Assembly: GCA_035575695.1 (NCBI GenBank)
Contig: DATLXP010000078.1
Location: 1,838 to 65,837, forward strand
Direction: 5' to 3'
Source: Vicinamibacterales bacterium
GTDB taxonomy: Bacteria > Acidobacteriota > Vicinamibacteria > Vicinamibacterales > 2-12-FULL-66-21
Length of the DNA stretch: 64,000 nucleotides
Below the pieces are notes generated by a model, which was not told the origin of the DNA, did not search any database, and saw only the letters and a list, made by a program, of their open reading frames with translations. How positions within the stretch are numbered: the first letter of the stretch is position 1; every line of letters starts with the position of its first letter. This document shows, piece by piece, positions 11,855 to 42,917 of the stretch. The translations under genes and the position numbers were made by a program.

Positions 11855-11873
11855 GGAACCCGGATGCCATCAG

Positions 11874-11930
11874 ACCGATGGACCGATGGACCGATGGGCC
11901 GATGAGCCGATGAGCCGATAAACCGATAAG
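11874..11930. repeat. 8-bp tandem repeat array, 7 units (ACCGATGG x3, GCCGATGA x2, GCCGATAA, ACCGATAA)
   Basis: CCGAT recurs at exactly 8-nt spacing (11875, 11883 ... 11923). The unit is the reverse complement of the unit in the 39965-40078 array. Confidence 0.85.
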
Positions 11931-18907: not shown

Positions 18908-18975
18908 CCCCTGAAGGGGACAGCCACCATTTCCGCTGCAACAGTTACGGCAATGGTGGCTGTCCCCTTCAGGGG
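18908..18975. repeat. Perfect 24-bp-stem inverted repeat of the GGGGACAGCCACC family
   Basis: CCCCTGAAGGGGACAGCCACCATT (18908-18931) pairs perfectly with AATGGTGGCTGTCCCCTTCAGGGG (18952-18975), with a 20-nt loop. Confidence 0.9.
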
Positions 18976-19054: not shown

Positions 19055-20135
19055 ATGGACCTTCTGTCCGCGATCGCCGTTTCCATGCTTTCGGTCTCCA
19101 GGCTGAAGGCCGCCTCCGTTTTCCATCAGCTCCGTCAATCCCGCCCGGACGTCGATCTGAATCTCCTTCTGGATGCGTTGCGCGTGCAGGGCGCCGACCG
19201 ACACGCGCTGGCGGACGCGGCTCTCGCCGCCGCACACGCCGCCATGGCGGCCGCACCTGGTCTGGGGATGGTGCCGATTCCCTCCTCCGATCCGCGCTAC
19301 CCGGCCCTGCTCGCGTGCACGACCGACCCTCCCCCCGTGCTCTGGACCAGGGGCTCCCTGGAGGTCCTGGGCCGTCCGGCGGTCGCCATTGTGGGCTCGC
19401 GCGCCGCGACTCCTTACGCGCTTCAGGTCGGGCGCCGTTTGGCCGCTGAGCTGGCCGGACGGGGTATCGTCGTGGTGAGTGGCCTCGCCCGGGGAGTTGA
19501 TTCAGCCGCTCACGAGGGATCCCTCGACGCGGGCGGTCCCACGATTGCGGTCCTGGGCTCCGGTCTGGACCGGATCTACCCGGGCGAACATGTCGCCTCA
19601 GCCGGACGATTTCCGCCAACGGGTTACTGCTCAGCGAGTTAGGGCCAGGCGCACCGCCGCTGGCCGAGCATTTTCCCCTGCGCAACAGGATCATCAGCGG
19701 GATCTCGCTCGGCACGGTCGTCGTCGAAGCCTCAGAGAAGAGCGGATCGCTGATTACCGCAGCCTGTGCCCTGAAGCAGGGGCGCGACGTCATGGCGGTC
19801 CCTGGCAATATTCTCAGCGGCCGGAACCGCGGATCCCACAGCCTGTTGAAGGACGGGGCAAAGATCATCGAGACTGCGGACGATATTCTTGATGAACTGG
19901 GATGGTCCCTGCCCTCATCCGACCCGATAAAGCCCCGGAAGTCCCTGAGCGGCGATCCCATACTGTCCAGAATGCAGGCTGGTGAGACCTACGGACTGGA
20001 CGAACTGGTCGATCTCACCGGGATTTGGCCGCCTCGAAACTGCTCCCGCGGCTCATGGAGCTGCAACTGCTTGGACAGATCGACACCCCTTCCGGCGGAC
20101 GATTCATGCGTCTCGCCGGGGTGGGAGCCGTCTGA
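19055..20135 (+). pseudogene. dprA: DNA processing protein DprA/Smf, disrupted by two frameshifts
   Basis: The DprA sequence runs through three frames. Frame 2 extends to ~19597 (...GVDSAAHEGSLDAGGPTIAVLGSGLDRIYPGEHVA). Frame 1 covers ~19597-20025 (LSRTISANGLLLSELGPGAPPLAEHFPLRNRIISGIS...AVPGNILSGRNRGSHSLLKDGAKII). Frame 3 runs from ~20028 (AASKLLPRLMELQLLGQIDTPSGGRFMRLAG, stop at 20133-20135). The span is 1081 nt, and adding 2 nt would restore a multiple of 3. Confidence 0.75.
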
Positions 20136-20166
20136 GCGACCGGTTCTGGTAACGTAGGTCACAGTT

Positions 20167-22596: not shown

Positions 22597-24093
22597 ATGA
22601 TTCACATCATCGGTGGCGGACTGGCCGGCAGCGAGGCGGCGTGGCAAGCCGCCTCCCTGGGCGTGCCCGTCACGCTCTACGAGATGCGGCCGGTGCGTCC
22701 TACCGTTGTTCACAAGACTGACGGGCTCGCCGAGCTGGTCTGCAGCAACTCCTTCCGTGGCGACAAGCTTGATAACGCCGTAGGCCTGCTGAAGGAAGAG
22801 ATGCGGCGGCTTGGATCGCTCGTCATGCGCGCCGCCGAGGTCGCGCGGGTGCCCGCGGGGGCGGCGCTCGCCGTCGATCGTGAGAAGTTTTCTGACGAAG
22901 TGACGCGCGCGCTGTTGTCCCACCCCCTCATCACGATCCGCCGCGAAGAGATCCAGCAGGTACCGGACGGGCTCGATGGCCCGGTGATCCTGGCCACCGG
23001 TCCGTTGACGTCCGACGCGTTGTCGCGCGCGATCGCGGCGCTGGTGGGTGGCGACCACTTGTATTTCTATGACGCCATCAGCCCGATCGTTCTCGCCGAG
23101 TCGATCGATCGGAGCAAGGTGTTCCGTGCGTCCCGGTGGGGCCGCAGTCTCCGAGGGGACAGCCACCATTTGACCTCAAACGAAGGGGACAGCCACCAAT
23201 TGACCCCAGGTGAAGGGGACAGCCACCAATTGACCTGCCCGCCGGAATTGGTGGCTGTCCCCGTTTGTGGGGTGGATGACGGAGAAGGCGACTATTTGAA
23301 CTGCCCGTTCACCGCAGACGACTACGCGCGGTTCTACGAGGCGCTGATGTCGGCAGAAAAGACCTCGCTCCACGAATTCGACGACCCGAAATTCTTCGAG
23401 GGATGCCTGCCGATCGAAGTGATGGCGTCGCGCGGTGTGGACACGCTGCGGTTCGGGCCGATGAAACCGGTCGGCCTCATCGATCCGAAAACCGGACGCG
23501 AGGCCTACGCCGCCGTGCAATTGCGTCAGGATAACCTCGCCGCATCGCACTTCAGTCTGGTCGGCTTCCAGACCCAGATGAAGTGGAGTGAGCAGGCGCG
23601 AGTCCTGCGGCTGATTCCAGGACTCGAGCAGGCGGAGTTCGTCCGGTTCGGCATGATCCACCGCAATACCTACATCAACGGACCGACGGTGCTGCGCGAC
23701 ACCTGGCAGATGCGCGGCAGGGACGATCTGTTTTTTGCCGGACAGATTTCCGGGGTCGAGGGTTACGTCGAGTCCGCAGCCTCCGGCCTGATGGCAGGAC
23801 GAAACGCCGCCGCGCGTGCCCAGGGTCGCGAGCCGACCGCAGCGCCGCGGACGACCGCCATCGGGGCGCTGGCCTATTACGTATCGCACGCCAACCCGAA
23901 ACACTATCAACCGAGCAACATCACCTTCGGGATCATCCCGCCGCTCGTCCGTGAAGAGGGGGGGCCACGGGTGCCGAAAAAGAAGGCTGAGCGGAATGAG
24001 CGCCTGTCGACGCGGGCGCTGGCGCATCTTCAGGCCTGGATGGAGTCGGGCACGCCCGGAGATCAGGTGGGGCCCGAGGCGCTGGCACCATGA
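22597..24093 (+). CDS. trmFO: Methylenetetrahydrofolate-tRNA-(uracil-5-)-methyltransferase TrmFO (Gid), carrying an in-frame repeat-derived insertion
   Basis: MIHIIGGGLAGSEAAWQAA (FAD-binding motif) and ELVCSNSF, collinear with TrmFO. The exception is about 45 extra residues (GDSHHLTSNEGDSHQLTPGEGDSHQLTCPPELVAVPVCG) just before the conserved YLNCP. Confidence 0.93.
   Translation: MIHIIGGGLAGSEAAWQAASLGVPVTLYEMRPVRPTVVHKTDGLAELVCSNSFRGDKLDNAVGLLKEEMRRLGSLVMRAAEVARVPAGAALAVDREKFSDEVTRALLSHPLITIRREEIQQVPDGLDGPVILATGPLTSDALSRAIAALVGGDHLYFYDAISPIVLAESIDRSKVFRASRWGRSLRGDSHHLTSNEGDSHQLTPGEGDSHQLTCPPELVAVPVCGVDDGEGDYLNCPFTADDYARFYEALMSAEKTSLHEFDDPKFFEGCLPIEVMASRGVDTLRFGPMKPVGLIDPKTGREAYAAVQLRQDNLAASHFSLVGFQTQMKWSEQARVLRLIPGLEQAEFVRFGMIHRNTYINGPTVLRDTWQMRGRDDLFFAGQISGVEGYVESAASGLMAGRNAAARAQGREPTAAPRTTAIGALAYYVSHANPKHYQPSNITFGIIPPLVREEGGPRVPKKKAERNERLSTRALAHLQAWMESGTPGDQVGPEALAP
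23151..23267. repeat. Three 30-bp direct repeats plus one inverted copy of the GGGGACAGCCACC element, inside the trmFO coding sequence
   Basis: Units at 23151-23180, 23181-23210 and 23211-23240; adjacent units are 24/30 identical by my alignment. The inverted copy GGAATTGGTGGCTGTCCCCGTTTG lies at 23244-23267. Confidence 0.9.
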
Positions 24094-25070
24094 GAGAGCA
24101 CGTCCGCACATTCCTCGAACGCCTCGCGCTCAACGAGAACGCGTCGGCGCATACCGTGCGCGCGTATGAGAGCGACCTGTCGCAGTTCCTCATGTTTCTC
24201 GCGCGGCACACGGGCAGAAAGCGCCCCGACCTCGAGCCCACCGATTTTTCGCACCTGAACATCCGCGCGTTTCTCGGCGACCTGCAGAAACAGGGCAATG
24301 CCCGCTCGTCCGCCGCGCGCAAACTGGCGGCGCTTCGAACGTTCGGGCGCTACCTGCGGCGTGAAGGCGCGCTCGACGGCGACCCGGCCTCGCTCGTCGG
24401 CACACCCAAGCGTGAGCAGCGCCTGCCCGCGCATCTCGGCGAAGGGGAAATGACGAAGCTCCTCGACGTGCCCGATGCGAGTCAACCGCTCGGGCGCCGT
24501 GACCGGGCGATTCTCGAACTGTTCTACGCCTCGGGGCTTCGGCTGAGCGAGCTCGTCGGACTGAACATCGACGACGTGAACCTCTCGAGCCGGATCGTGC
24601 GCGTGCTTGGCAAGGGGGGGAAGGAGCGGATCGTGCCGTTCAACCGCACGACCGAAGCGGCCATCCGCGCGTGGCTCAAGGACTGGGCAGCCATCGCGGA
24701 GGCGGGGCTCCCGCCTTCGCCAGGGCTTCGGCGGACAAGCCCGACGTCGACAAGGCTCCGGCGGGCAACCCGGGCGGACACGAGACGGAAAGCCGACCCC
24801 CTGTTCCTCAATTACCAGGGAGGACGCCTGTCAACGCGGAGTGTCGACAGGCTCGTCAGGACGTGCGTGGCGCAGTGCAGTACACGATTCGGGATCAGCG
24901 CGCACGCCTTGCGCCACTCGTTCGCCACCCACCTCCTGCAGCGCGGGGCCGATCTGCGGTCGATCCAGGAGCTCCTGGGACACTCGCGGCTCAGCACCAC
25001 CCAGCGCTACACGCACGTCAACACCACGCAACTGATGGATGCGTACAGGAAGTCGCATCCGAAGGCGTAA
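24090..25070 (+). CDS. xerC: Tyrosine recombinase XerC/XerD family (housekeeping context), with an Arg-rich internal insertion
   Basis: N-terminal SAM-like domain (HTVRAYESDLSQF) and catalytic HALRHSFATHLL...LLGHSRLSTTQRYTHV. The start overlaps the trmFO stop. Confidence 0.9.
   Translation: MREHVRTFLERLALNENASAHTVRAYESDLSQFLMFLARHTGRKRPDLEPTDFSHLNIRAFLGDLQKQGNARSSAARKLAALRTFGRYLRREGALDGDPASLVGTPKREQRLPAHLGEGEMTKLLDVPDASQPLGRRDRAILELFYASGLRLSELVGLNIDDVNLSSRIVRVLGKGGKERIVPFNRTTEAAIRAWLKDWAAIAEAGLPPSPGLRRTSPTSTRLRRATRADTRRKADPLFLNYQGGRLSTRSVDRLVRTCVAQCSTRFGISAHALRHSFATHLLQRGADLRSIQELLGHSRLSTTQRYTHVNTTQLMDAYRKSHPKA
24713..24772. repeat. Imperfect 30-bp tandem duplication inside xerC
   Basis: 24713-24742 versus 24743-24772 is 21/30 identical by my alignment. 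The first unit contains the small palindrome GGGCTT-CGGCGGAC-AAGCCC. The two units encode GLRRTSPTST and RLRRATRADT. Confidence 0.6.
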
Positions 25071-27958: not shown

Positions 27959-29992
27959 CTATGAGTCGCTGTTCTGCAGCGCTTCCCACTGGCCCATCAG
28001 GTCACCCACCTCCCACATCAGTGCCTGGTGCCTGTCAATAACGGGCTTTGAGACGTCGCGGTCATCGTAGAAGCCGACTGCCGACATCCTGACTTCTATC
28101 TCTTTTATTTCGCGTTCGCGGTCGGCGATGCGGGCCTCGAGCTCCTCGACGCGCTTCTTCTTGGCCCCTTCGACCTTCCTTGCGCGTCGGGCGTCGGCTT
28201 CCTGCTGCTTGCGCTCGTCGTAGGAGGGCCCGCCTTCGCCGCTGCGAGGCTTTGGCGCGGCGTCCGGCTTCCCGACACCAGCGTCCGGCTTCCTGCTGCC
28301 GGCGTCCTGCTGCGTCCCGGGATCCGGTTTCCGAGCCCCGGCTCCGGGCCGCCGGGGGCCGGACGCCGGCAGCTGGGGATTGGACGCCTGCTGCTTGCGG
28401 CTCCAGAGAAACTCCTCGTAGTTCCCGGGATAGACGAGGGCCCCGCCGTTGCCGATCTCGATGACCTTCGTCGCCAGCTTGTCGACGAAATACCGGTCGT
28501 GGGAGACGAAGATCAGCGTGCCCCCGAAGTCTTCGAGCGCGTCGAGGAGCACATCCTTGGAATCGAGGTCCAGGTGATTGGTCGGCTCATCGAGGATCAG
28601 GGTGTTCGAGGGGCGCAACAGCATGCGCGCGACGGCAAGCCGGGTGCGCTCGCCTCCCGACAGCACGCGCACGGGCTTGTCCACGTCATCGCCCGAAAAA
28701 AGAAAACCGCCGAGGATGTTGCGGATGGCCGGGACCATCTGCAGCGGCGCGTCGCCTGCGAGCGTCTGATAGACGGTGAGCGTCGGGTCGAGGCGCGTCG
28801 CCTCGTCCTGCGCGAAGTACTGCATCACGACCTGGTGTCCTTCGGTACGCGTACCCGAGTCGGGATTTTCCACGCCCGAGAGCATCCGCATCATGGTCGA
28901 CTTGCCCGCGCCGTTTGGACCGATCAGCGCGATGCGGTCACCGCGCTCGATGTGGACGCCGACGCTCTCGAACACCACGCGGGTCCCGTAGGCCTTGCGG
29001 ATGCTCTTCAAATCGAACACCGTGCGCCCGCTCTTTGCGCACGCCGGGAAGGTGAAGTGGACGCGCTTCCGCTCCGGGGGGATCTCGATCGGCACGATCT
29101 TGTCGAGCATCTTGATCCGGCTCTGGACCTGCGCCGCCTTGGTCGCCTGGTAGCGGAACCGGTTGATGAACGCGTTGATGCGCTCGAGCTCGTCATCCTG
29201 GTCCCGCTTCATCTGACGCAGGCGCTCCATGCGCGTCTCGCGCTCGAGCAGGTACGCGCTGTAGTTCCCGACGTAGTCGGTGAGCTTCCGAAGGCCGATG
29301 TCGGTGATCCGCGTGACCACCGCATCCAGGAAGAACCGGTCGTGTGACACCAGGATGACGGCGTGCGGGTACTCGGTCAGGTACTCTTCGAGCCAGTTCC
29401 TCGCCTCGAGATCGAGGTGGTTGGTCGGTTCGTCGAGGAGGAGCAGCCCGGGGCGTGTCAGGAGCAGCCTGGCGAGCGCGATGCGCATCTGCCATCCGCC
29501 CGAAAACGTTTCGGTCTGCTTCTCCAGGTCCTCGGCGGAAAACCCCAGGCCCCGAAGGACGGTCATCACCTTGAGGTCGATGCTGTAGCCTTCACCCCGC
29601 CGGAAACTTTCCTGGAGATCGCTGTACCGGCTGAGCATCGCTTCATGCTCGGACTCGGCGACCGTCTCGTCTCCCAGCCGCTCCTCGAGGGCATGTATCT
29701 CCGCGCGCATGTCCAGCAGCGGTTTGAACGCGAGGCTGGCTTCTTCGTGGAGGGTACGCCCGCTGTGGTTCAGGCCGTCCTGGGGCAGGTAGCCGACGGT
29801 GAGGCCCGAGGGCTTGACGACGATGCCTGCATCCGGCTCATCGAGGCCAGCCAGCATCTTGAGCAGCGTCGTCTTGCCCGCGCCGTTCGGGCCGGCGAGG
29901 CCGACGCGCTCTCGATCATCGATCTGCCAGCTGACCGTGTCGAGCAGAACGCGCGCGCCGAAAGATTTGCTGAGGGAAACGAGTTGGATCAA
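27959..29992 (-). CDS. ABC-F family ATPase (Uup/YheS/EttA-like translation-associated ABC protein)
   Basis: 677 aa. Two ABC cassettes (GPNGAGKTT, GPNGAGKST; LSGG signatures), no transmembrane domain, C-terminal coiled-coil. TTG start overlaps the stop of the upstream response regulator (TTGA at 29989-29992). Confidence 0.9.
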   Translation of the reverse strand: MIQLVSLSKSFGARVLLDTVSWQIDDRERVGLAGPNGAGKTTLLKMLAGLDEPDAGIVVKPSGLTVGYLPQDGLNHSGRTLHEEASLAFKPLLDMRAEIHALEERLGDETVAESEHEAMLSRYSDLQESFRRGEGYSIDLKVMTVLRGLGFSAEDLEKQTETFSGGWQMRIALARLLLTRPGLLLLDEPTNHLDLEARNWLEEYLTEYPHAVILVSHDRFFLDAVVTRITDIGLRKLTDYVGNYSAYLLERETRMERLRQMKRDQDDELERINAFINRFRYQATKAAQVQSRIKMLDKIVPIEIPPERKRVHFTFPACAKSGRTVFDLKSIRKAYGTRVVFESVGVHIERGDRIALIGPNGAGKSTMMRMLSGVENPDSGTRTEGHQVVMQYFAQDEATRLDPTLTVYQTLAGDAPLQMVPAIRNILGGFLFSGDDVDKPVRVLSGGERTRLAVARMLLRPSNTLILDEPTNHLDLDSKDVLLDALEDFGGTLIFVSHDRYFVDKLATKVIEIGNGGALVYPGNYEEFLWSRKQQASNPQLPASGPRRPGAGARKPDPGTQQDAGSRKPDAGVGKPDAAPKPRSGEGGPSYDERKQQEADARRARKVEGAKKKRVEELEARIADREREIKEIEVRMSAVGFYDDRDVSKPVIDRHQALMWEVGDLMGQWEALQNSDS

Positions 29993-34470: not shown

Positions 34471-34950
34471 ATGACGAAGCGAGCAGTCATCGCCTGTGCC
34501 ATGCTCACGGCCGGTCTCGTTGCCGGCGCATGCGGCAAGCCGGTCGACCTGAAGCAGTCCCTCCAGGTCACGGACGTCACGAGCGGCTGGTTCGACGCCG
34601 GTATCGTCGAGGGCAAGAACAAGCTCGTGCCGACGGTGACCTTCACGCTCCGCAAGGCTGAGGGGGTGGCGAACTCGGCGGTCGCCCTGAACCTCGTCTT
34701 CAAGACGTCCGACACGGGGGACGAAAGCAACGACGAGTTCGTGCAACGGGTCGAGTTCAACGGGAACGAGACGGCGCCGATCGTCGTGCGCTCGAAAAGC
34801 GGATATACGGCGGATCCGCCGCAGTCGCGCGCGGACATGCTGAAGCACAGCCAGTTCCGTGACATGGACGTCGAGATCTTTGCCAAGCAGACCTCGCAGT
34901 GGGTCTCGCTTCACAAGACCCGCATCGAACGCCAGCTCCTCACCAGGTAA
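34471..34950 (+). CDS. Hypothetical lipoprotein
   Basis: Lipobox LVAGAC after a hydrophobic N-terminus. 159 aa. Confidence 0.6.
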   Translation: MTKRAVIACAMLTAGLVAGACGKPVDLKQSLQVTDVTSGWFDAGIVEGKNKLVPTVTFTLRKAEGVANSAVALNLVFKTSDTGDESNDEFVQRVEFNGNETAPIVVRSKSGYTADPPQSRADMLKHSQFRDMDVEIFAKQTSQWVSLHKTRIERQLLTR

Positions 34951-34961
34951 CCCATCGCTTC

Positions 34962-36395
34962 GTGACGTCTCCAATCCCCGCAGCCTCGCAGTCTGCCCCG
35001 TCGCTCGAGCGACGGCTCGGGCCACTGGACGCCGCCGCCATCGTCGTCTCCAACGTCATCGGAGGTGGCATCCTGTTCACCCCGCCACAAGTGGCCGCCG
35101 CCGTGCCGGACGCGTGGCTGTTTCTCGGCGTGTGGGTGGCTGGCGGCCTGCTGGCGTTTGCCGGGGCGATGGCGTACGCCGAGCTGGCCGCGCTGCGCCC
35201 CCGCGCAGGAGGGGAGTATGTCTACCTCCGCGCCGCGTACGGGCGCATGATGGCGTTTCTTACGGGGTGGACATCGTTCGTCGCGGGCTTCTCTGGTGCG
35301 ATCGCCGCGAGCGCCGTGGTGCTTGCCGCCTACGTCGGTCGGTTCGTGCCGGCCGCGAGGGACGTGACCCCCATTTTTACGGTTCCCCTGCCCTTCGTGC
35401 CGCTCGTGTTCTCGCGCCAGTCGTTCGTGGCGCTGTCGGCGATCGCGTTGATGTCGTGGATCCACCTTCGCGGCGTCGGGCCTGGCCGTCTCGTCGGCAA
35501 CATCCTCGCGGGCCTGAAGGTGTCGGCACTGCTCATCTTCATCGCCCTGGGTTTCTCCATAGGGGAGGGGTCCGCTGGCAATCTTCAGCAGGCGGCCTCG
35601 AGTGTGCCGCCGGCGACCTGGCTGCTGGCGCTGATCCCGGTGATGTTCACGTATGCGGGCTGGAACGCGGCCGCCTACGTCGCCGAGGAGGTCCGGGATC
35701 CGGGGCGCAACGTGCCGATGGCGCTCGCGCTGGGCACCGGGGCCGTCATCGCGATCTACCTCCTGCTGAACGCGCTCTATCTGTTCGTGTTGCCCGTTGG
35801 AGAGCTCGCCCAGGTCCGCGGCAGCGTCCTCGATGTGATCGCCGACCGGCTGCTCGGGACGCGGGCGGGGGATGTGATGGGCGTCGTGTCGATCATCAGT
35901 ATCGCGGCCAGCATCTCGGCGATGGTGTTTGCCGGGCCGCGCGTGTACTACGCGATGGCGCGGGACGGATTGTTCGTCCGTTCAGCCGCGGTGGTGCATA
36001 CGCGGTATCGCACGCCCGCGGTCGCCATCGTTGCGCAGGCGATCTGGAGTGGGCTGCTTGTCCTGTCGGGCAGCGCCTCGACGCTGACGACGTACACGGG
36101 CTTCGCGGTGGTGTTGTTCTCCGGGATCGCTGTGGCGTCGCTCTTCGTGTTGCGTCACAAGGAGCCTGACGCGCCGCGGCCGTTCAAGGCGTGGGGGTAC
36201 CCCCTGGCGCCGGCGATCTTCACGGTTGCGAGCGCGCTGATCGTCGGTAACGCATTGTGGACGGACCTGGTGCGGCCGATGATGTGGGGCGGCTCGTGGG
36301 GTCCGTCCGCCGCGGGTCTGATTGTGATTGCGCTCGGCCTGCCGGTGTACCTGATCGCGACACGTGCGAAGGGGACAGCCACCTTTGTACCGTAA
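34962..36395 (+). CDS. APC-superfamily amino acid permease
   Basis: AAAIVVSNVIGGGILFTPP and about 12 hydrophobic segments. GTG at 34962 is preferred over GTG at 34899, which would overlap the preceding gene by 52 nt; the start remains uncertain. The last codons (KGTATFVP) derive from the repeat element. Confidence 0.8.
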   Translation: MTSPIPAASQSAPSLERRLGPLDAAAIVVSNVIGGGILFTPPQVAAAVPDAWLFLGVWVAGGLLAFAGAMAYAELAALRPRAGGEYVYLRAAYGRMMAFLTGWTSFVAGFSGAIAASAVVLAAYVGRFVPAARDVTPIFTVPLPFVPLVFSRQSFVALSAIALMSWIHLRGVGPGRLVGNILAGLKVSALLIFIALGFSIGEGSAGNLQQAASSVPPATWLLALIPVMFTYAGWNAAAYVAEEVRDPGRNVPMALALGTGAVIAIYLLLNALYLFVLPVGELAQVRGSVLDVIADRLLGTRAGDVMGVVSIISIAASISAMVFAGPRVYYAMARDGLFVRSAAVVHTRYRTPAVAIVAQAIWSGLLVLSGSASTLTTYTGFAVVLFSGIAVASLFVLRHKEPDAPRPFKAWGYPLAPAIFTVASALIVGNALWTDLVRPMMWGGSWGPSAAGLIVIALGLPVYLIATRAKGTATFVP

Positions 36396-36441
36396 GTGCA
36401 CAAAGGGGCTGTCCCCTTCACAAAGGTGGCTGTCCCCTTCG
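36367..36441. repeat. One forward and two inverted copies of the GGGGACAGCCACC element between convergent genes
   Basis: CGAAGGGGACAGCCACCTTTGT at 36367-36388, ACAAAGGGGCTGTCCCCTTC at 36400-36419 (one base missing) and ACAAAGGTGGCTGTCCCCTTCG at 36420-36441. Confidence 0.9.
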
Positions 36442-36792
36442 TGTCAGTGCGTACCACGTCAGCAGCGCGAAAGCGCCGTCGCTGGCGGCAAACAGCAGGA
36501 ACGACGACGGAGAGCCTCGCAGGGCGTAGTCGAGCAGGAACGCCGCCGCCCCGGCCCCCTTCAGACCCGGCCCCATGACCCAGAGATAACCCCGGTACCG
36601 TTCGGGGTCGCGCCAGGGCAGGTAGTACCCAGCCCCGATCGCCATCAGGAATATGCCATTCAGGTCGGAGAAAATGGGTGGGCTTGCCGGGGGCACGCCG
36701 AAGGTGGCCGCGAGGTGCGCGGAGGCGAAAAGTAAAAGGGCCCCTACGACGACATCGTAGAGGCCCGAGACTGCCGCAACGCCCTTGAGCAT
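36418..36792 (-). CDS. Hypothetical small integral membrane protein
   Basis: 124 aa with about four hydrophobic helices. The C-terminal codons (RRGQPPL) lie within the repeat element. Confidence 0.55.
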   Translation of the reverse strand: MLKGVAAVSGLYDVVVGALLLFASAHLAATFGVPPASPPIFSDLNGIFLMAIGAGYYLPWRDPERYRGYLWVMGPGLKGAGAAAFLLDYALRGSPSSFLLFAASDGAFALLTWYALTRRGQPPL

Positions 36793-36795
36793 CCG

Positions 36796-37833
36796 TTACC
36801 GAATGGGCCGCAGCTCACCCTTATACGTGACCGTCTCGCCCGGGTTCACCAGCACCTCGAAACCGACCGTCTGGTAACCGGCCGCGCGGATCTCAACGCG
36901 GTGCGCGCCCGCCTCAATCGGCATCCGCTGAAAGGCACCATCGAAACTGTCGACCTCGCCGACATAGTACCCATCCACGTAGACCTGACCGAAGTCCGGC
37001 TTCACCTTCAAGCGCAGCTGACCGACACGCCGCTCGCGCCCGTATCGTCCGGCGTCTCGGTAGCCGCCGTAGCCACCCGAGCCATACCCATAGTCGGAGT
37101 CATACGGTGAGTAGTAGCCGTAACTGAATGGATCGTAAAAATATCCGAGCCCGAAACCGTACGCCGGGAACCACCGGCCATGGCCGTAGTTGGCATAGCC
37201 ATAGTTGCCATACCCGTAGCCGGAGTAGTAGCCGTAGCGGCTTCCGTAGCCGTTCCCATAGCCATAGTACGGATCGTAGTACGAGCCGCCGCTGTAGCCG
37301 CCGTTGTTGCCGCGGCTGGGCACGCCGCCGCGACGTTCGACGGCCGATCCCACAGGCTGCTGCCCGTCGCGGGGACGACTGTAGGCCGGGACCGCCCGGC
37401 GCTCTGCACCGCTGCGGCTGCCATCGGCCGACGGTACCCGGTCGGCACCGCGCGGGGCGTTCGACTGCTCGCCCCGGACCACGGCGCGATCGCGCGAACT
37501 GTCAGCCGAATTATTCTGGCCGCCTTGTTCGCCGCGGCTGCGGCGCTCCGGCGCGCGGGGCGCGCCGTACGAGGATCCGCCACCCGCCGGCATGCTCGAC
37601 GACGATGACCCGCCCGACGAGGCTGAGCCAGCCGATGAGCCGGAGTCGTTCGACGGACGCGACACGGCCGATCCGGTCGTGTCGCCGCTCGACGGTCGTG
37701 AGGCAGCCGATCCGTTGGAATCGGGCGTCGGTTTTGATTCGGGACGTTCCTTCGCCTGGCCGGCCCACGCGGGGCTGACGCTGACCGTCAGTGCCGCGGC
37801 GGCGGTCCAGAGTGTGAGTCTTCGTCGAGTCAT
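36796..37833 (-). CDS. Secreted PEGA-domain protein with long Ser/Gly/Arg-rich and Gly/Tyr-rich low-complexity regions
   Basis: ATG at 37833 gives the signal peptide MTRRRLTLWTAAAALTVSVSPAWA. The C-terminus (LRLKVKPDFGQVYVDGYYVG...HRVEIRAAGYQTVGFEVLVNPGETVTY) matches the PEGA fold. Confidence 0.7.
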   Translation of the reverse strand: MTRRRLTLWTAAAALTVSVSPAWAGQAKERPESKPTPDSNGSAASRPSSGDTTGSAVSRPSNDSGSSAGSASSGGSSSSSMPAGGGSSYGAPRAPERRSRGEQGGQNNSADSSRDRAVVRGEQSNAPRGADRVPSADGSRSGAERRAVPAYSRPRDGQQPVGSAVERRGGVPSRGNNGGYSGGSYYDPYYGYGNGYGSRYGYYSGYGYGNYGYANYGHGRWFPAYGFGLGYFYDPFSYGYYSPYDSDYGYGSGGYGGYRDAGRYGRERRVGQLRLKVKPDFGQVYVDGYYVGEVDSFDGAFQRMPIEAGAHRVEIRAAGYQTVGFEVLVNPGETVTYKGELRPIR

Positions 37834-37914
37834 GATTGCTCCTGGGGCGGTGCCCGGGCTGGCGCCGGGCTTCGATCCGCCTTTATGGTGGACTAAACCC
37901 GCACGTCCGTCAAA

Positions 37915-37930
37915 AGCAACAGGTCTGCCA
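37915..37930 (-). promoter_or_regulatory. Sigma-54 (-24/-12) promoter candidate: TGGCAGACCTGTTGCT
   Basis: The minus strand reads TGGCAG-N5-TTGCT with the exact GG-N10-GC spacing, about 80 nt upstream of the ATG at 37833. It lies inside the rejected long ORF extension. Confidence 0.5.
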
Positions 37931-38048
37931 CCGGCAGAGCTGTGGAACACGCCGAAAACACACAACGTGCCTCCTGGGATGTCCCTCAGCGAGTCCACCC
38001 CTGTCCCGCAACGCGGACACCCGCGCTTTGATAAACTCGGGTGCTTCG

Positions 38049-38576
38049 ATGATGCACGCCACGACAGTTCTAGCGGTCCGGCACCACGACCAGGCGGTCA
38101 TGGCGAGTGATGGACAGGTCACGCTGGGGACGACCGTCGTGAAGCACGCGGCGAAAAAGATCCGGCGCCTGTACAACGACCGCATCCTCGCCGGGTTCGC
38201 GGGGTCGGCGGCTGATTCTTTCGCGCTCTTCTCGCGATTCGAAGCCAAGCTCGAACAGTACCGGGGCAACCTGGAGCGCTCGGCGGTGGAGCTTGCAAAA
38301 GACTGGCGCACGGACCGCATGCTCCGCCGCCTCGAAGCCATGTTGATCGTGATGGACGGCAAGAGCACCTACCTGCTGTCGGGGACCGGCGATCTCATCG
38401 AACCCGACGACGGCATCATTGCGGTGGGATCGGGAGGTCCGTACGCGATGGCTGCCGCCAAGGCGCTCGCGGCGCACACCGAGCTCGATGCCCAGGCGAT
38501 CGCCAGGGAATCGATGATGATTGCCGGCAGGATCTGCATCTACACGAACGGAAACATCACGCTCGAGACGCTGTGA
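38049..38576 (+). CDS. hslV: ATP-dependent protease subunit HslV
   Basis: [11 protein letters not shown] (N-terminal Thr nucleophile), [10 protein letters not shown] and GSGGPYA motifs. Confidence 0.93.
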
Positions 38577-39964
38577 ACCGCATGGCCATTCCTCTCCCAG
38601 AAACCTCGGCGACCACCATCGAGGCCTTGACGCCACGGCAGATCGTCGCCGAACTCGACAAACACGTCGTCGGACAGGCGCAGGCGAAGCGCGCGGTGGC
38701 GATCGCCCTGCGAAACCGTGCGCGCCGGCAGAAGCTGCCCGCGGAACTCGCTGAAGAGATCGCGCCGAAAAACATCCTGATGATCGGCCCGACCGGCGTC
38801 GGCAAGACGGAGATCGCCCGGCGCCTGGCGAAGCTGGCCCAGTCTCCCTTCATCAAGGTCGAAGCGTCGAAGTTCACCGAGGTGGGGTACGTCGGGCGCG
38901 ATGTCGAGTCGATGGTGCGCGACCTGGTGGAGATCGCCGTCGGGATGGTCCGCGAGGAACGGCGGGCTGAGGTCCACCACAAGGCGCGCGAAACGGCTGA
39001 AGAGCGGGTGCTCGACCTGCTGCTGCCGCCTCTTCCCGCGGCGAGTGAATACGACGAGCAGTCGACGTCCGTCCGCGAGCAGGCGCAACGCACGCGCGAG
39101 AAACTGCGGGATCAGCTGCGCGCCGGCCGTCTCGATCACAAGCACCTCGAGATCGACGTCCGCGAGAAGTCGTTCCCGTCGTTCGAGATCGTGGCGGGTT
39201 CATCGGTCGAGGAAGTCGACATCAACATGAAGGACATGATGGGCGGTCTCTTCGCGGGACGGACGAAGAAGCGCCGGCTGCGCGTGCCGGACGCGCTCGA
39301 CGCGCTCGCGCAGGAGGAGGAACAGAAGTTGATCGACATGGACTCGGTTGCGCGCGCCGCAGTCGACCGCGTCCAGCAGGCGGGGATCATCTTCATCGAC
39401 GAGATCGACAAGGTCGCCGGCCGCGAGGGCGGACACGGGCCAGACGTGAGCCGCGAAGGGGTACAGCGCGACATCCTCCCGATTGTCGAGGGCACGACGG
39501 TCAATACGAAGTACGGGATGGTGAAGACCGACCACGTGCTCTTCGTGGCCGCCGGGGCCTTTCACGTGTCGAAGCCGTCCGACCTGATTCCTGAGCTGCA
39601 GGGGCGCTTTCCGATCCGGGTAGAGCTCGAAGCGCTCGTGCGAGCAGACTTCGTGCGCATCCTGACGGAACCGAAGAATGCGCTCGTCAAGCAGTACACC
39701 GCACTCCTCTCGACGGAGGGTGTGACATTGCGGTTCACCCCCGGCGCGATCGATCGGATTGCCGACTTCGCGACGCTCGTGAATGACCGCACGGAGAACA
39801 TCGGCGCGCGGCGGCTCCACACCGTCATGGAAAAACTCCTCGACGAAGTCTCGTTCGAGGCGCCGGACCTCGACCAGAAGCACCTGACGATCGACGAGGC
39901 ATATGTCGACAGGATGCTGGCGGAGATTGCCGGCAACGAAGATCTGTCGAGGTACATTCTTTGA
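38573..39964 (+). CDS. hslU: ATP-dependent protease ATPase subunit HslU
   Basis: [17 protein letters not shown], Walker [26 protein letters not shown]-terminal LSRYIL. Confidence 0.96.
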
Positions 39965-40078
39965 GGATCGACTCATCGACTCATCGACTTATCGATTCAT
40001 CGGGTCATCGACTCATCGACTCATCGATGCATCGACTCATCGACGCATCGACCTGTCGGCTGATCGGGCTATCGGTGA
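39965..40078. repeat. 8-bp tandem repeat array, about 14 units (consensus CGACTCAT / TCATCGAC)
   Basis: ATCG recurs every 8 nt from 39967 to 40071, with one degenerate unit at 40055. The array starts 3 nt after the hslU stop and runs through the candidate ATG (40027) of the next gene. Confidence 0.9.
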
Positions 40079-41286: not shown

Positions 41287-42044
41287 AACGATTCTTTCGT
41301 ATCGATCACAAGGGGAACGCCCGGCACGCCGTGGAGGAGGCCGGTCAGTGGACGCTCATCGAGGGGGATATCTTCGGTGAATTCAGCGCCGGCGACCGTC
41401 TCGAACCGACCGGTCATCGGCTGCTTGCGCCGGTGCTACCGTCGAAGATAGTCTGCGTTGGCCTCAACTACAGGGACCACGCCGCGGAAGTGAACAAGCC
41501 GCTGCCGGTCGAACCGCTCATCTTCATCAAGCCCTCAACGTGCGTCATCGGCCCTGACGAGTCGATCGTGCTGCCGGAAGGCGCCGGGCGCATCGACCAC
41601 GAAGCGGAAGCTGGCGTGGTCATCGGGCGGCGGGCGTCGCACGTGCGCGAAGAGGACGCGCAGGATTACATCTTCGGGCTCATCTGCGTGAACGACGTCA
41701 CGGCCCGCGCCCTGCAGGAAAAAGGTGTGGGCTACACCTGGGCCAAGGGCTTCGATACATTTGCGCCCATCGGTCCCTGCATCGCCCAGGGTCTCGACTA
41801 CACGGCGCCGGACGGTCTGACGGTCGAGGGACTCGTCAACGGTGTGGTCCGGCAGTCATCCTCCACGCGGCAGCTGATCTTCCCGATCCCGCGGCTGATC
41901 GCCGTCATCTCGTCCATCATGACGCTCCTGCCGGGGGACATCATCTCCACCGGCACACCGTCCGGCATCGGCCCGTTGACCGCGGGGGACCGCGTCACCA
42001 TCAGGGTGCAGGGGGTCGGCGAGCTCACGAATCCGGTAGAGTAG
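41283..42044 (+). CDS. Fumarylacetoacetate hydrolase (FAH) family protein
   Basis: KIVCVGLNYRDHAAE, DHEAEAGVVIG, KGFDTFAPIGP and GDIISTGTPSGIG motifs. Confidence 0.88.
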   Translation: MKRFFRIDHKGNARHAVEEAGQWTLIEGDIFGEFSAGDRLEPTGHRLLAPVLPSKIVCVGLNYRDHAAEVNKPLPVEPLIFIKPSTCVIGPDESIVLPEGAGRIDHEAEAGVVIGRRASHVREEDAQDYIFGLICVNDVTARALQEKGVGYTWAKGFDTFAPIGPCIAQGLDYTAPDGLTVEGLVNGVVRQSSSTRQLIFPIPRLIAVISSIMTLLPGDIISTGTPSGIGPLTAGDRVTIRVQGVGELTNPVE

Positions 42045-42117
42045 GCCCGACGAGAGTAGGCCCGACTTCAGGTCGGGCGCCACAGCCCGAATAGTAGGCC
42101 CGACCTTCAGGTCGGGC
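42041..42117. repeat. REP-like hairpin cluster (one partial and two full GTAGGCCCGAC copies)
   Basis: The partial copy at 42041-42051 contains the FAH gene TAG stop (42042-42044). Full copies at 42056-42078 and 42094-42117. Confidence 0.8.
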
Positions 42118-42804: not shown

Positions 42805-42917
42805 GCCAGTAAACCCAGGTGTAGGCCCGACATTGCGACATTGAAGGTGTAGGCCCGACGTTCATGCCGGGCGTCTGACTTAAGGTGTAGGCCCGACATT
42901 CATGTCGGGCGTCTGAC
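42801..42917. repeat. REP-like hairpin cluster (TTCAT-loop variants)
   Basis: GTAGGCC at 42801-42807 contains the tal TAG stop (42802-42804). A partial copy starts at 42821. GTAGGCCCGACGTTCATGCCGGGCGTCTGAC at 42849-42879 and GTAGGCCCGACATTCATGTCGGGCGTCTGAC at 42887-42917. Confidence 0.8.

Follow-up and report, generated by a model that had tools for sequence, protein, structure and literature searches.

A probable dispersed palindromic repeat arrayed in frame within a hypervariable loop of TrmFO in Vicinamibacterales

The trmFO gene of a Vicinamibacterales bacterium carries an insert built of short, mutually complementary repeat arms, which lengthens the encoded protein without breaking its reading frame. 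The gene lies in a 64-kb stretch of contig DATLXP010000078.1 from a metagenome-assembled genome (MAG), hereafter the window. TrmFO is the FADH2/methylenetetrahydrofolate-dependent tRNA m5U54 methyltransferase. We think it probable that the insert is an array of arms (three forward and one reverse, in modules of ~30 nt) of a dispersed, non-autonomous palindromic repeat, that it sits in a tolerant, hypervariable loop of the enzyme, and that it was already there in the common ancestor of the window genome and its closest relatives. The gene, the loop and the parts of the array are as follows.

22597-24093, + strand: trmFO open reading frame (ORF), 498 amino acids (aa), intact, assigned by NCBIfam equivalogs and a match to structure 3G5Q, with cysteines C49 and C270
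23140-23289, + strand: clade-wide hypervariable loop, aa 182-231, between ...SRW and DYLNCP, from the homologue alignment
23154-23183, + strand: first direct 30-nt unit, core at 23155-23167
23184-23213, + strand: second direct 30-nt unit, core at 23185-23197
23214-23243, + strand: third direct 30-nt unit, core at 23215-23227; its first 17 nt are the 5' arm of the hairpin
23246-23262, - strand: inverted arm AATTGGTGGCTGTCCCC, 17 nt, the 3' arm of the hairpin, inverted core at 23250

The ORF scored 642.4 bits against NCBIfam NF003739 (cut-off 262) and 598.3 bits against TIGR00137 (cut-off 428.65), in both cases with a match split into two stretches by the insert. The best solved structure for its product is T. 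thermophilus TrmFO (3G5Q, E 2.5e-140), with query residues 2-184 aligned to residues 4-183 and query residues 231-487 to residues 184-433, so that 46 extra residues (185-230) fall between T. thermophilus residues 183 and 184. A preliminary description of the window had noted about 45 extra residues before YLNCP, which agrees with this alignment, but the repeat DNA (23155-23262) supplies only ~36 of the 46; the remaining ~10 (GRSLR...CGVDDGEG) belong to a loop common to the whole clade. C49 aligns with T. thermophilus C51 and C270 with C223, which we take to be the catalytic cysteines, and both window cysteines are invariant in our alignment of relatives (A1). With the ORF intact and both aligned cysteines kept in relatives, the window trmFO therefore looks functional despite the insert. 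Calling the enzyme ‘essential-type’, as had been done, is an overstatement, since trmFO knock-outs are viable in B. subtilis and T. thermophilus.

Within the array, we found the three direct units and the inverted copy that the preliminary description had reported. Tandem Repeats Finder returned a period of 30, 2.8 copies and a score of 131. The two later direct units are 83% and 73% identical to the first, and counting by eye in the register originally used gave the reported 24/30 for each adjacent pair. The inverted arm is 100% complementary to the second and third units and 94% to the first, and all four arms share the core GGGGACAGCCACC. The array encodes the peptide GDSHxLT...VAVP. While the core itself is stop-free in all six frames, the spacers between the arms close the two unused coding-strand frames of trmFO, leaving only the used frame open. 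The strong mRNA hairpin proposed earlier between the third unit and the inverted copy was likewise predicted by folding (-42.8 kcal/mol, z -5.2; whole insert -79.9 kcal/mol, z -4.4); the sequence 3' of it is GTTTGTGGGG, with no U-tract. By reasoning, we set aside a CRISPR (units too short, no spacers), an intein (no splicing domain) and a programmed bypass (the frame is simply open).

The core is not private to trmFO. It occurs eight times in the window against 0.15 expected, with a maximum of one in 100 shuffles, and the sites (18916(+)/18955(-), 23155/23185/23215(+)/23250(-) and 36371(+)/36425(-)) make up three loci, all with inverted pairs and with the arm consensus (G/C)(A/G)A-GGGGACAGCCACC-(A/T)(A/T)TT. 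The two loci outside trmFO, neither assigned a strand, are the following.

18908-18975: copy A, perfect 24-nt arms with 20 nt of loop between them, located in the divergent spacer that separates a TPR (tetratricopeptide repeat) gene (-) from dprA (+)
36367-36441: copy C, a forward arm, a degenerate reverse arm and a perfect reverse arm, with a 21-nt period

Arms of 17-24 nt thus stand at two loci unlinked to trmFO, which bears out the earlier proposal that a dispersed palindromic element has multiplied in frame in this gene. Both loci had been described as intergenic hairpins; this is true of copy A, but copy C overlaps the ends of two convergent ORFs and provides the C-terminal codons and stop codons of both, ending the transporter-like ORF 34899-36395 as ...RAKGTATFVP-stop and the minus-strand ORF 36418-36792 as ...RRGQPPL-stop. 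The predicted RNA folds are strong at both (-58.6 kcal/mol, z -10.2 for copy A; -54.5 kcal/mol, z -7.0 for copy C). The sequences between the arms are unrelated among copies, and at the intergenic copies the flanks extend the palindrome. A terminator scan of the window called none of the three copies, and none has a T-run.

Such a palindrome might instead have arisen locally, by replication slippage and template switching in a low-complexity loop with no mobile element, the other window copies being independent products of the same mutational bias. Unrelated inter-arm loops would fit this account, as would tandem arms with differing periods (30, 27 and 21 nt were observed) and the GGGCC/GGCCC motifs of short loops, which are possible palindrome seeds; neither a target duplication (in the flanks) nor a transposase (in 20 window ORFs) was found. 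We nevertheless regard a local origin as improbable. It would have to produce, at unlinked and non-homologous loci, arms of 17-24 nt with an exact 13-mer and near-identical flanks where 0.15 occurrences are expected by chance, and it does not account for genome-specific arm variants common to trmFO and xerC in two relatives (L203, L206) or for the identical core in unrelated metagenome contigs. Here and below, L-numbers denote loci of relatives or metagenome contigs, and P0096 is one close protein homologue.

The same repeat family lies in trmFO of close relatives. L202 holds a reverse GGGGACAGCCACC arm together with two forward ones at a distance of 30 nt. In L203 it is the reverse arm that is doubled, again at 30 nt, with a single forward arm; L203 also has a spacer that approximates the reverse complement of the window spacer, and GTTTTTT after the hairpin. 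The window, L202 and L203 all hold 30-nt arm arrays. The arms of L201, the closest relative, are GGGGACAGTCACC / GGTGACTGTCCCC, and its right junction, GTCCCC GTT TGT GGG GTG, is exactly that of the window; L202, L203, L206 and L004 have a slightly longer right junction in common. The arms in L206 are GGGGACACTCACC / GGTGAGTGTCCCC, L004 carries four GGGGACAGTCCCC units and L031 carries GGGGACAGTCACAC. That close relatives have the same family and junction indicates that the insertion predates the split of the window genome from them and was present in their common ancestor. Dating the insertion and looking for unit-number variation among orthologues had been proposed in the preliminary description: the insert proved old and not strain-specific, and arm numbers differ among L201, L202 and L203. 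The same comparison bears on whether the array is an artefact of assembly (a repeat that was collapsed or is chimeric, for instance). The window does come from a MAG, and a frameshift in the window dprA could be an assembly indel, but independent assemblies (L201, L202, L203) recovered the same family and junction with different arm numbers, and the ORF is intact with conserved flanks, leaving an artefact with scarcely any probability.

We compared the arms across 17 hairpins, picked by the similarity of both arms to one core. In these, both partners had changed in 18 of the 27 stem pairs, one-sided changes were absent, and the core contained no G-U pair; the covariation score was 0.348 against 0.106 in shuffles and was reached by 0 of 500 shuffles, and slid controls also fell far below it. 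The arms within a hairpin have been kept Watson-Crick complementary while their sequence drifts between genomes. Across the rest of trmFO, the third-codon-position identity of the window to L202 and L203 is 0.52-0.53, yet the 13-mer core is identical in all their arms. The core is therefore conserved beyond neutral drift: either its arms are under constraint, or a shared family has re-seeded them repeatedly. It is read as GDSH in the window trmFO, as GTVT and GDSH in that of L201, and as RGQPP in xerC of L203, and because the same core is read in different frames at different places, it is the DNA that is conserved, not the peptide.

The identical core also turned up in metagenome contigs. Our 14-mer scan of these gives contexts and is no census, and among the matches listed most single ones look like chance. 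Inverted arm pairs ~30-60 nt apart were present, among the matches listed, only in L082, L118, L134, L135, L146 and L152; L147 holds two core matches 7.5 kb apart. In L118, L152 and L082, the core forms hairpins with A- and T-tracts between convergent genes, and by their sequence these copies look like a bidirectional intrinsic terminator. Some metagenome copies have single-arm A/T flanks that are self-complementary (AAATAGG...CCTATTT), which is not so in the window. No two-arm pattern was found in the viral contigs that we scanned for it. A separate arrangement was seen in L135 (4098-4224), where a nested palindrome with GGGGACGTTCACC outside and GGGGACAGCCACC inside, each with flanking A- and T-tracts, stacks arms from different subfamilies symmetrically.

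The hairpin might alternatively be a selected nucleic-acid signal: a terminator or attenuator inside the gene, active if translation becomes uncoupled; an element governing RNase action on the topA-trmFO-xerC transcript or its stability; or a motif of the protein-recognition or DNA-uptake type, spread by molecular drive. A core 100% identical at ~52% third-position identity and strictly covarying arms would be expected of such a signal, the A-/T-tracts of L118, L152 and L082 and the GTTTTTT of L203 point the same way, and copies lie in or beside the DNA-processing genes dprA, topA and xerC. Against this, the hairpin is not kept at the site (most of 79 species loops are without one, and the families differ), the three window copies have no T-run and went uncalled in the terminator scan, and the lack of G-U pairs in the core argues for a constraint on DNA, not RNA. 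No Rfam family was found in the window, and related hairpins gave only sub-threshold miRNA-like matches, which we took as generic matches to long hairpins. At roughly one arm per 8 kb, the repeat is far sparser here than known uptake sequences are. On balance we consider a selected signal unlikely, and a dispersed repeat in a tolerant loop remains our preferred explanation.

That the loop is tolerant is suggested by its variation among relatives. In the 120 closest TrmFO homologues, which are 75-85% identical to the window protein, the flanks ...FRASRWGRS and CGVDDGEGDYLNCP are highly conserved while the sequence between them varies in length and composition; the close relative P0096 has the shortest loop and no insert. 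A scan with one genome per species yielded 80 trmFO loci (labelled nearly all as Vicinamibacterales, Vicinamibacteria, Luteitalea or Acidobacteriota, with a few Bifidobacteriaceae, Acidimicrobiia and Solibacteraceae), and these repeated the pattern of conserved flanks and variable loop. Over 198 sequences, the length of the loop runs from 5 to 73 aa (median 36). In a set of 150 diverse TrmFO cluster representatives, the YDAxSPI-YLNCP spacing was measurable in 87, of which 50 have 22-24 aa; it is 68 aa in the window, making the canonical spacing ~45 aa shorter than that of the window; a minority of other TrmFO lineages have inserts at the same point, which are unrelated in sequence and do not amount to a homologous, repeat-free loop. 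From the variable length and these unrelated inserts, it therefore appears that the repeat occupies a site where TrmFO tolerates insertions. The earlier statement that TrmFO is collinear with its family outside the insert did not survive this comparison, as the site is a loop of 5-73 aa across the order and holds other repeat families elsewhere. An AlphaFold model from a 25-sequence alignment had a pLDDT (predicted local distance difference test) of 50, with the whole insertion domain below 50, and was unusable for mapping the loop.

The variable loop is also where hairpins concentrate. Taking perfect stems of >=13 and loops of <=60, we found 57 hairpins in 1.49 Mb (the 80 loci plus the window), which grouped into 44 clusters. 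The TrmFO loop, 0.5% of that sequence, holds 7 of the 44 clusters, so that they are enriched there 31-fold (binomial P = 2.7e-9). In the topA genes next to it, of which equally many were sampled, there is one such hairpin. At least six repeat families occupy the TrmFO loop of different genomes, several of them with copies elsewhere on the same contig. The loop of L204 holds GGGGCCTGACCCC repeats and that of L205 GGGGTCAGACC repeats; L044 has a 20-bp GGGGTCAGACCCC palindrome, L049 a member of the GGGGACGGGAG(C/T)C family, and L001 a canonical 30-nt GTAG repetitive extragenic palindrome (REP), identical in the loop and upstream of trmFO. L018 has a GGCCGGGCTGAAGCCCGGC palindrome in the loop with a second copy at 19240, and in L027 an array of GGGATTR heptamers is found in the loop as well as at four other sites. 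A loop matching the repeats of its own genome is thus shown for the window, L001, L018, L027, L203, L204 and L206, and not generally: loop k-mers had 9.1 versus 2.8 14-mer matches per kb in the 10-20 kb flanks, a modest excess dominated by few loci.

Peptide signatures of four loop families were found in 62 of the 120 close homologues, the labels being peptide patterns with DNA confirmation only at fetched loci. On a 120-leaf tree, the families are strongly interspersed: turnover amounted to 43 state changes against 56.6 when shuffled, and 19 of the 62 had a nearest neighbour of the same family; this estimate, from a neighbour-joining tree and Fitch counts, is crude. Such fast turnover is hard to reconcile with the GDSHxLT repeat being an adaptive protein feature that serves TrmFO function, such as tRNA or partner binding. 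As an adaptive peptide would predict, all three units keep the frame and the insert has been retained since the lineage of L201 diverged, but the same DNA is translated in different frames across genes and genomes and the close relative P0096 manages without the insert; we find this explanation very improbable.

A different kind of hairpin is common nearby. Arms built of tandem 6-7-nt units (TTGGTGAATTGGTGAATTG, GATTCGGGATTCGGG, GGGATTR) occur in many Vicinamibacterales spacers, often adjoining trmFO, and in L027 one such array has entered the TrmFO loop. The tandem-unit hairpins are at the following positions.

L006: 9892-9967
L057: 9914-9956
L059: 9929-10003
L064: 9931-9984
L048: 7508-7586
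L071: 9482-9546
L027: 1667, 7242 and 18567

Other genes carry in-frame palindromes as well. In L203 and L206, the genome’s own arm variant (a GGGGACA-type hairpin) lies both in trmFO and in frame in a loop of xerC, and in L203 the two copies have the same forward-reverse-reverse layout. An ABC-F gene of L204 contains the arms of that genome three times and a spacer contains them once more, and perfect in-frame hairpins of 17 and 14 bp, belonging to the related GGGGACGGGAG(C/T)C family, are present in topA of L018 (8723-8766) and dprA of L020 (484-529).

Two further loops in the window are repetitive. In its xerC (24090-25070, +), AWLKDW and LFLNY enclose a hypervariable loop, whose length in relatives runs from 11 to 57 aa; the window loop (24700-24800) holds a different palindrome, GGGCTTCGGCGGACAAGCCC / GGCTCCGGCGGGCAACCC, with the peptide PSPGLRRTSPTSTRLRRATR. 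The linker of ABC-F ORF 27959-29992 (-), at 28258-28373, combines tandem repeats of 21 and 14 nt with an inverted repeat of 13 bp, encoding RKPDPG / RKPDAG / GKPDAA ... PKPRSGEGG; the last of these peptides is also found in the TrmFO loop of L006.

We next asked where the element stands among known classes. No arm contains the GTAG or CGTC tag of REPs and of REPINs (REP doublets forming hairpins), and the 13-nt core, by eye, pairs with itself only at GG/CC, so that the element lacks the unit palindrome of a REP and its hairpins form between separate arms. Inverted arms are present as in a miniature inverted-repeat transposable element (MITE), but the conserved interior that the terminal inverted repeats of a MITE would enclose is not, the interior being unrelated in every copy. 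A GC-rich stem followed by a U-tract, as in an intrinsic terminator, is missing at the window copies; L118, L152 and L203 have T-tracts. What the window trmFO does present is a dispersed palindrome in frame in an otherwise conserved host protein, the pattern of the Rickettsia palindromic elements (RPEs). Further in-frame copies of this kind are in trmFO of L201-L203, L206, L004, L031, L001 and L027 and, outside trmFO, in the xerC (L203, L206), topA (L018), dprA (L020) and ABC-F (L204) genes described above. The earlier label ‘REP/MITE-like’ is apt for the behaviour of the element and not for family membership, and we regard the element as a new example of a known phenomenon, that of RPEs and intragenic REPs.

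RPEs are ~100-150 bp long and come from a genus that is obligately intracellular and AT-rich (Ogata et al. 2000, 2002; Claverie & Ogata 2003, via PMC10969869, PMC3733652). They resemble the window family as dispersed palindromes that lie in frame in housekeeping genes without inactivating them and add a peptide at a tolerated site, and in having several families per lineage and intergenic copies too. They differ from it in that the window arms are 17-24 nt and GC-rich (GGGG...CCCC), with variable inter-arm loops and tandem arrays, and in that the host here is a free-living Acidobacteriota order with one loop colonised repeatedly. Length and base composition set the two apart and make homology to RPEs unlikely. 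GTAG/CGTC REPs are mostly extragenic stem-loops, often between convergent genes (Di Nocera et al. 2013, PMC3733652); they occur singly, as dimers or grouped, are sometimes wholly within ORFs, where they encode 20-30 aa, and have been suggested to fall in linkers and loops, with a bias to DNA replication and repair genes (PMC3733652). The window family is like them in its short stem-loops and its intragenic and convergent-gene placement but unlike them in having neither tag and arms that are not palindromes themselves, while in L001 this loop of TrmFO does contain a genuine REP of the GTAG type.

The system of REPINs and RAYTs (REP-associated tyrosine transposases) is comparable in its inverted arm pairs forming long hairpins and its within-genome homogeneity; the window differs, with no RAYT match in the 20 ORFs scanned, no GTAG tag and inter-arm spacers that are not conserved. 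Inverted pairs of DNA-uptake sequences are a feature of Neisseria. The SPRITE element of S. pneumoniae is listed among terminator-like dispersed repeats (PMC10969869). The GC-rich stem with A-/T-tracts between convergent genes in relatives resembles both, whereas the window copies have no T-runs and were not called terminators. Mitochondrial coding palindromes of Nematomorpha reach 284 bp (PMC6649704) and are also perfect inverted repeats in coding sequence with both arms translated; they differ in being organellar and much longer, and they do not form a dispersed family that intergenic sites share. Our literature search returned no report of such repeats in Vicinamibacteria.

Canonical GTAG REP clusters are nonetheless present in window spacers, at 42036-42110 and 42820-42915 (GTAGGCCCGAC...GTCGGGCG). 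Because these coexist with the untagged GGGGACAGCCACC family, the window genome holds at least two unrelated palindromic repeat families.

Outside genes, the family forms hairpins with a terminator-like look. We propose that copies would reach a site and be kept uniform as DNA, whether through transposition-like insertion or through gene conversion by other family members. Arm number could then change by slippage or unequal recombination between arms. Recombination between inverted arms may flip units; the spacer of L203 approximates the reverse complement of that in the window. Selection on TrmFO would purge variants with a stop codon or a length that is not a multiple of three, the encoded GDSHxLT...VAVP peptide would be a tolerated passenger, probably disordered, in a surface loop, and ribosomes would unwind the mRNA hairpin. 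Several observations weigh against this account. No transposase or RAYT match was found in the 20 mid-sized window ORFs scanned, reading the flanks at the three window loci revealed no target-site duplication, and such unrelated inter-arm sequences would not be expected if the element transposed as a single unit. In the species representatives, a second copy within 10-20 kb is missing for most of the loops that bear hairpins, so that copy numbers may be low. The way the covariation set was picked biases it towards paired arms, and length variation is the sole basis on which we suggest that the loop is surface-exposed.

A broader reading, which we put forward tentatively and with some doubt, is that a few loops of Vicinamibacterales housekeeping proteins are lineage-wide landing pads (the TrmFO SRW-DYLNCP, XerC AWLKDW-LFLNY, TopA, DprA and ABC-F sites). 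Successive families, of the GGGG...CCCC type and others, would have been inserted there, amplified in ~30-nt modules and kept self-complementary by DNA-level homing or gene conversion, before decaying into disordered linker. If so, these loops would keep supplying a free-living phylum with new protein sequence, and the strict 13-nt core would imply a protein that recognises it.

Palindromes that lie in frame and are ‘selfish’ have been known chiefly in Rickettsia and a few REP-rich genomes, and here they are found in an abundant, free-living soil order. Beyond the preliminary description, the analysis showed that the TrmFO loop is a lineage-wide hotspot for several repeat families and that neighbouring housekeeping genes behave alike. 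Neither the GTAG nor the CGTC class accommodates the elements, and one loop of a conserved enzyme has been repeatedly colonised by different families; the TrmFO and XerC loops are therefore a convenient natural system for studying repeat movement, the upkeep of arm identity and the conversion of inserts to disordered loops. For annotation and phylogenetics, the TrmFO loop should be masked because its peptides are repeat-derived.

The window has other features of note. Its dprA (~19055-20157, +) has a single frameshift near 19585-19600, the N-terminal part ending ...LDRIYPGEH in one frame and the rest (...SELGPGAPPLAEHFPLRNRIISG...) continuing in another; the split gene is either a pseudogene or the result of a MAG assembly indel. 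Two 8-nt tandem arrays were seen: CATCGACT, ~10.8 copies at 39967-40052, just after ORF 38573-39964, which is probably hslU, and GACCGATG, ~6.9 copies at 11873-11927, in a divergent spacer adjoining an extracytoplasmic function (ECF) sigma gene. Finally, ORF 36796-37998 (-) encodes 400 aa with an extremely Tyr/Gly/Ser-rich low-complexity region (GYGNGYGSRYGYYSGYGYGNYGYANYGHG...).

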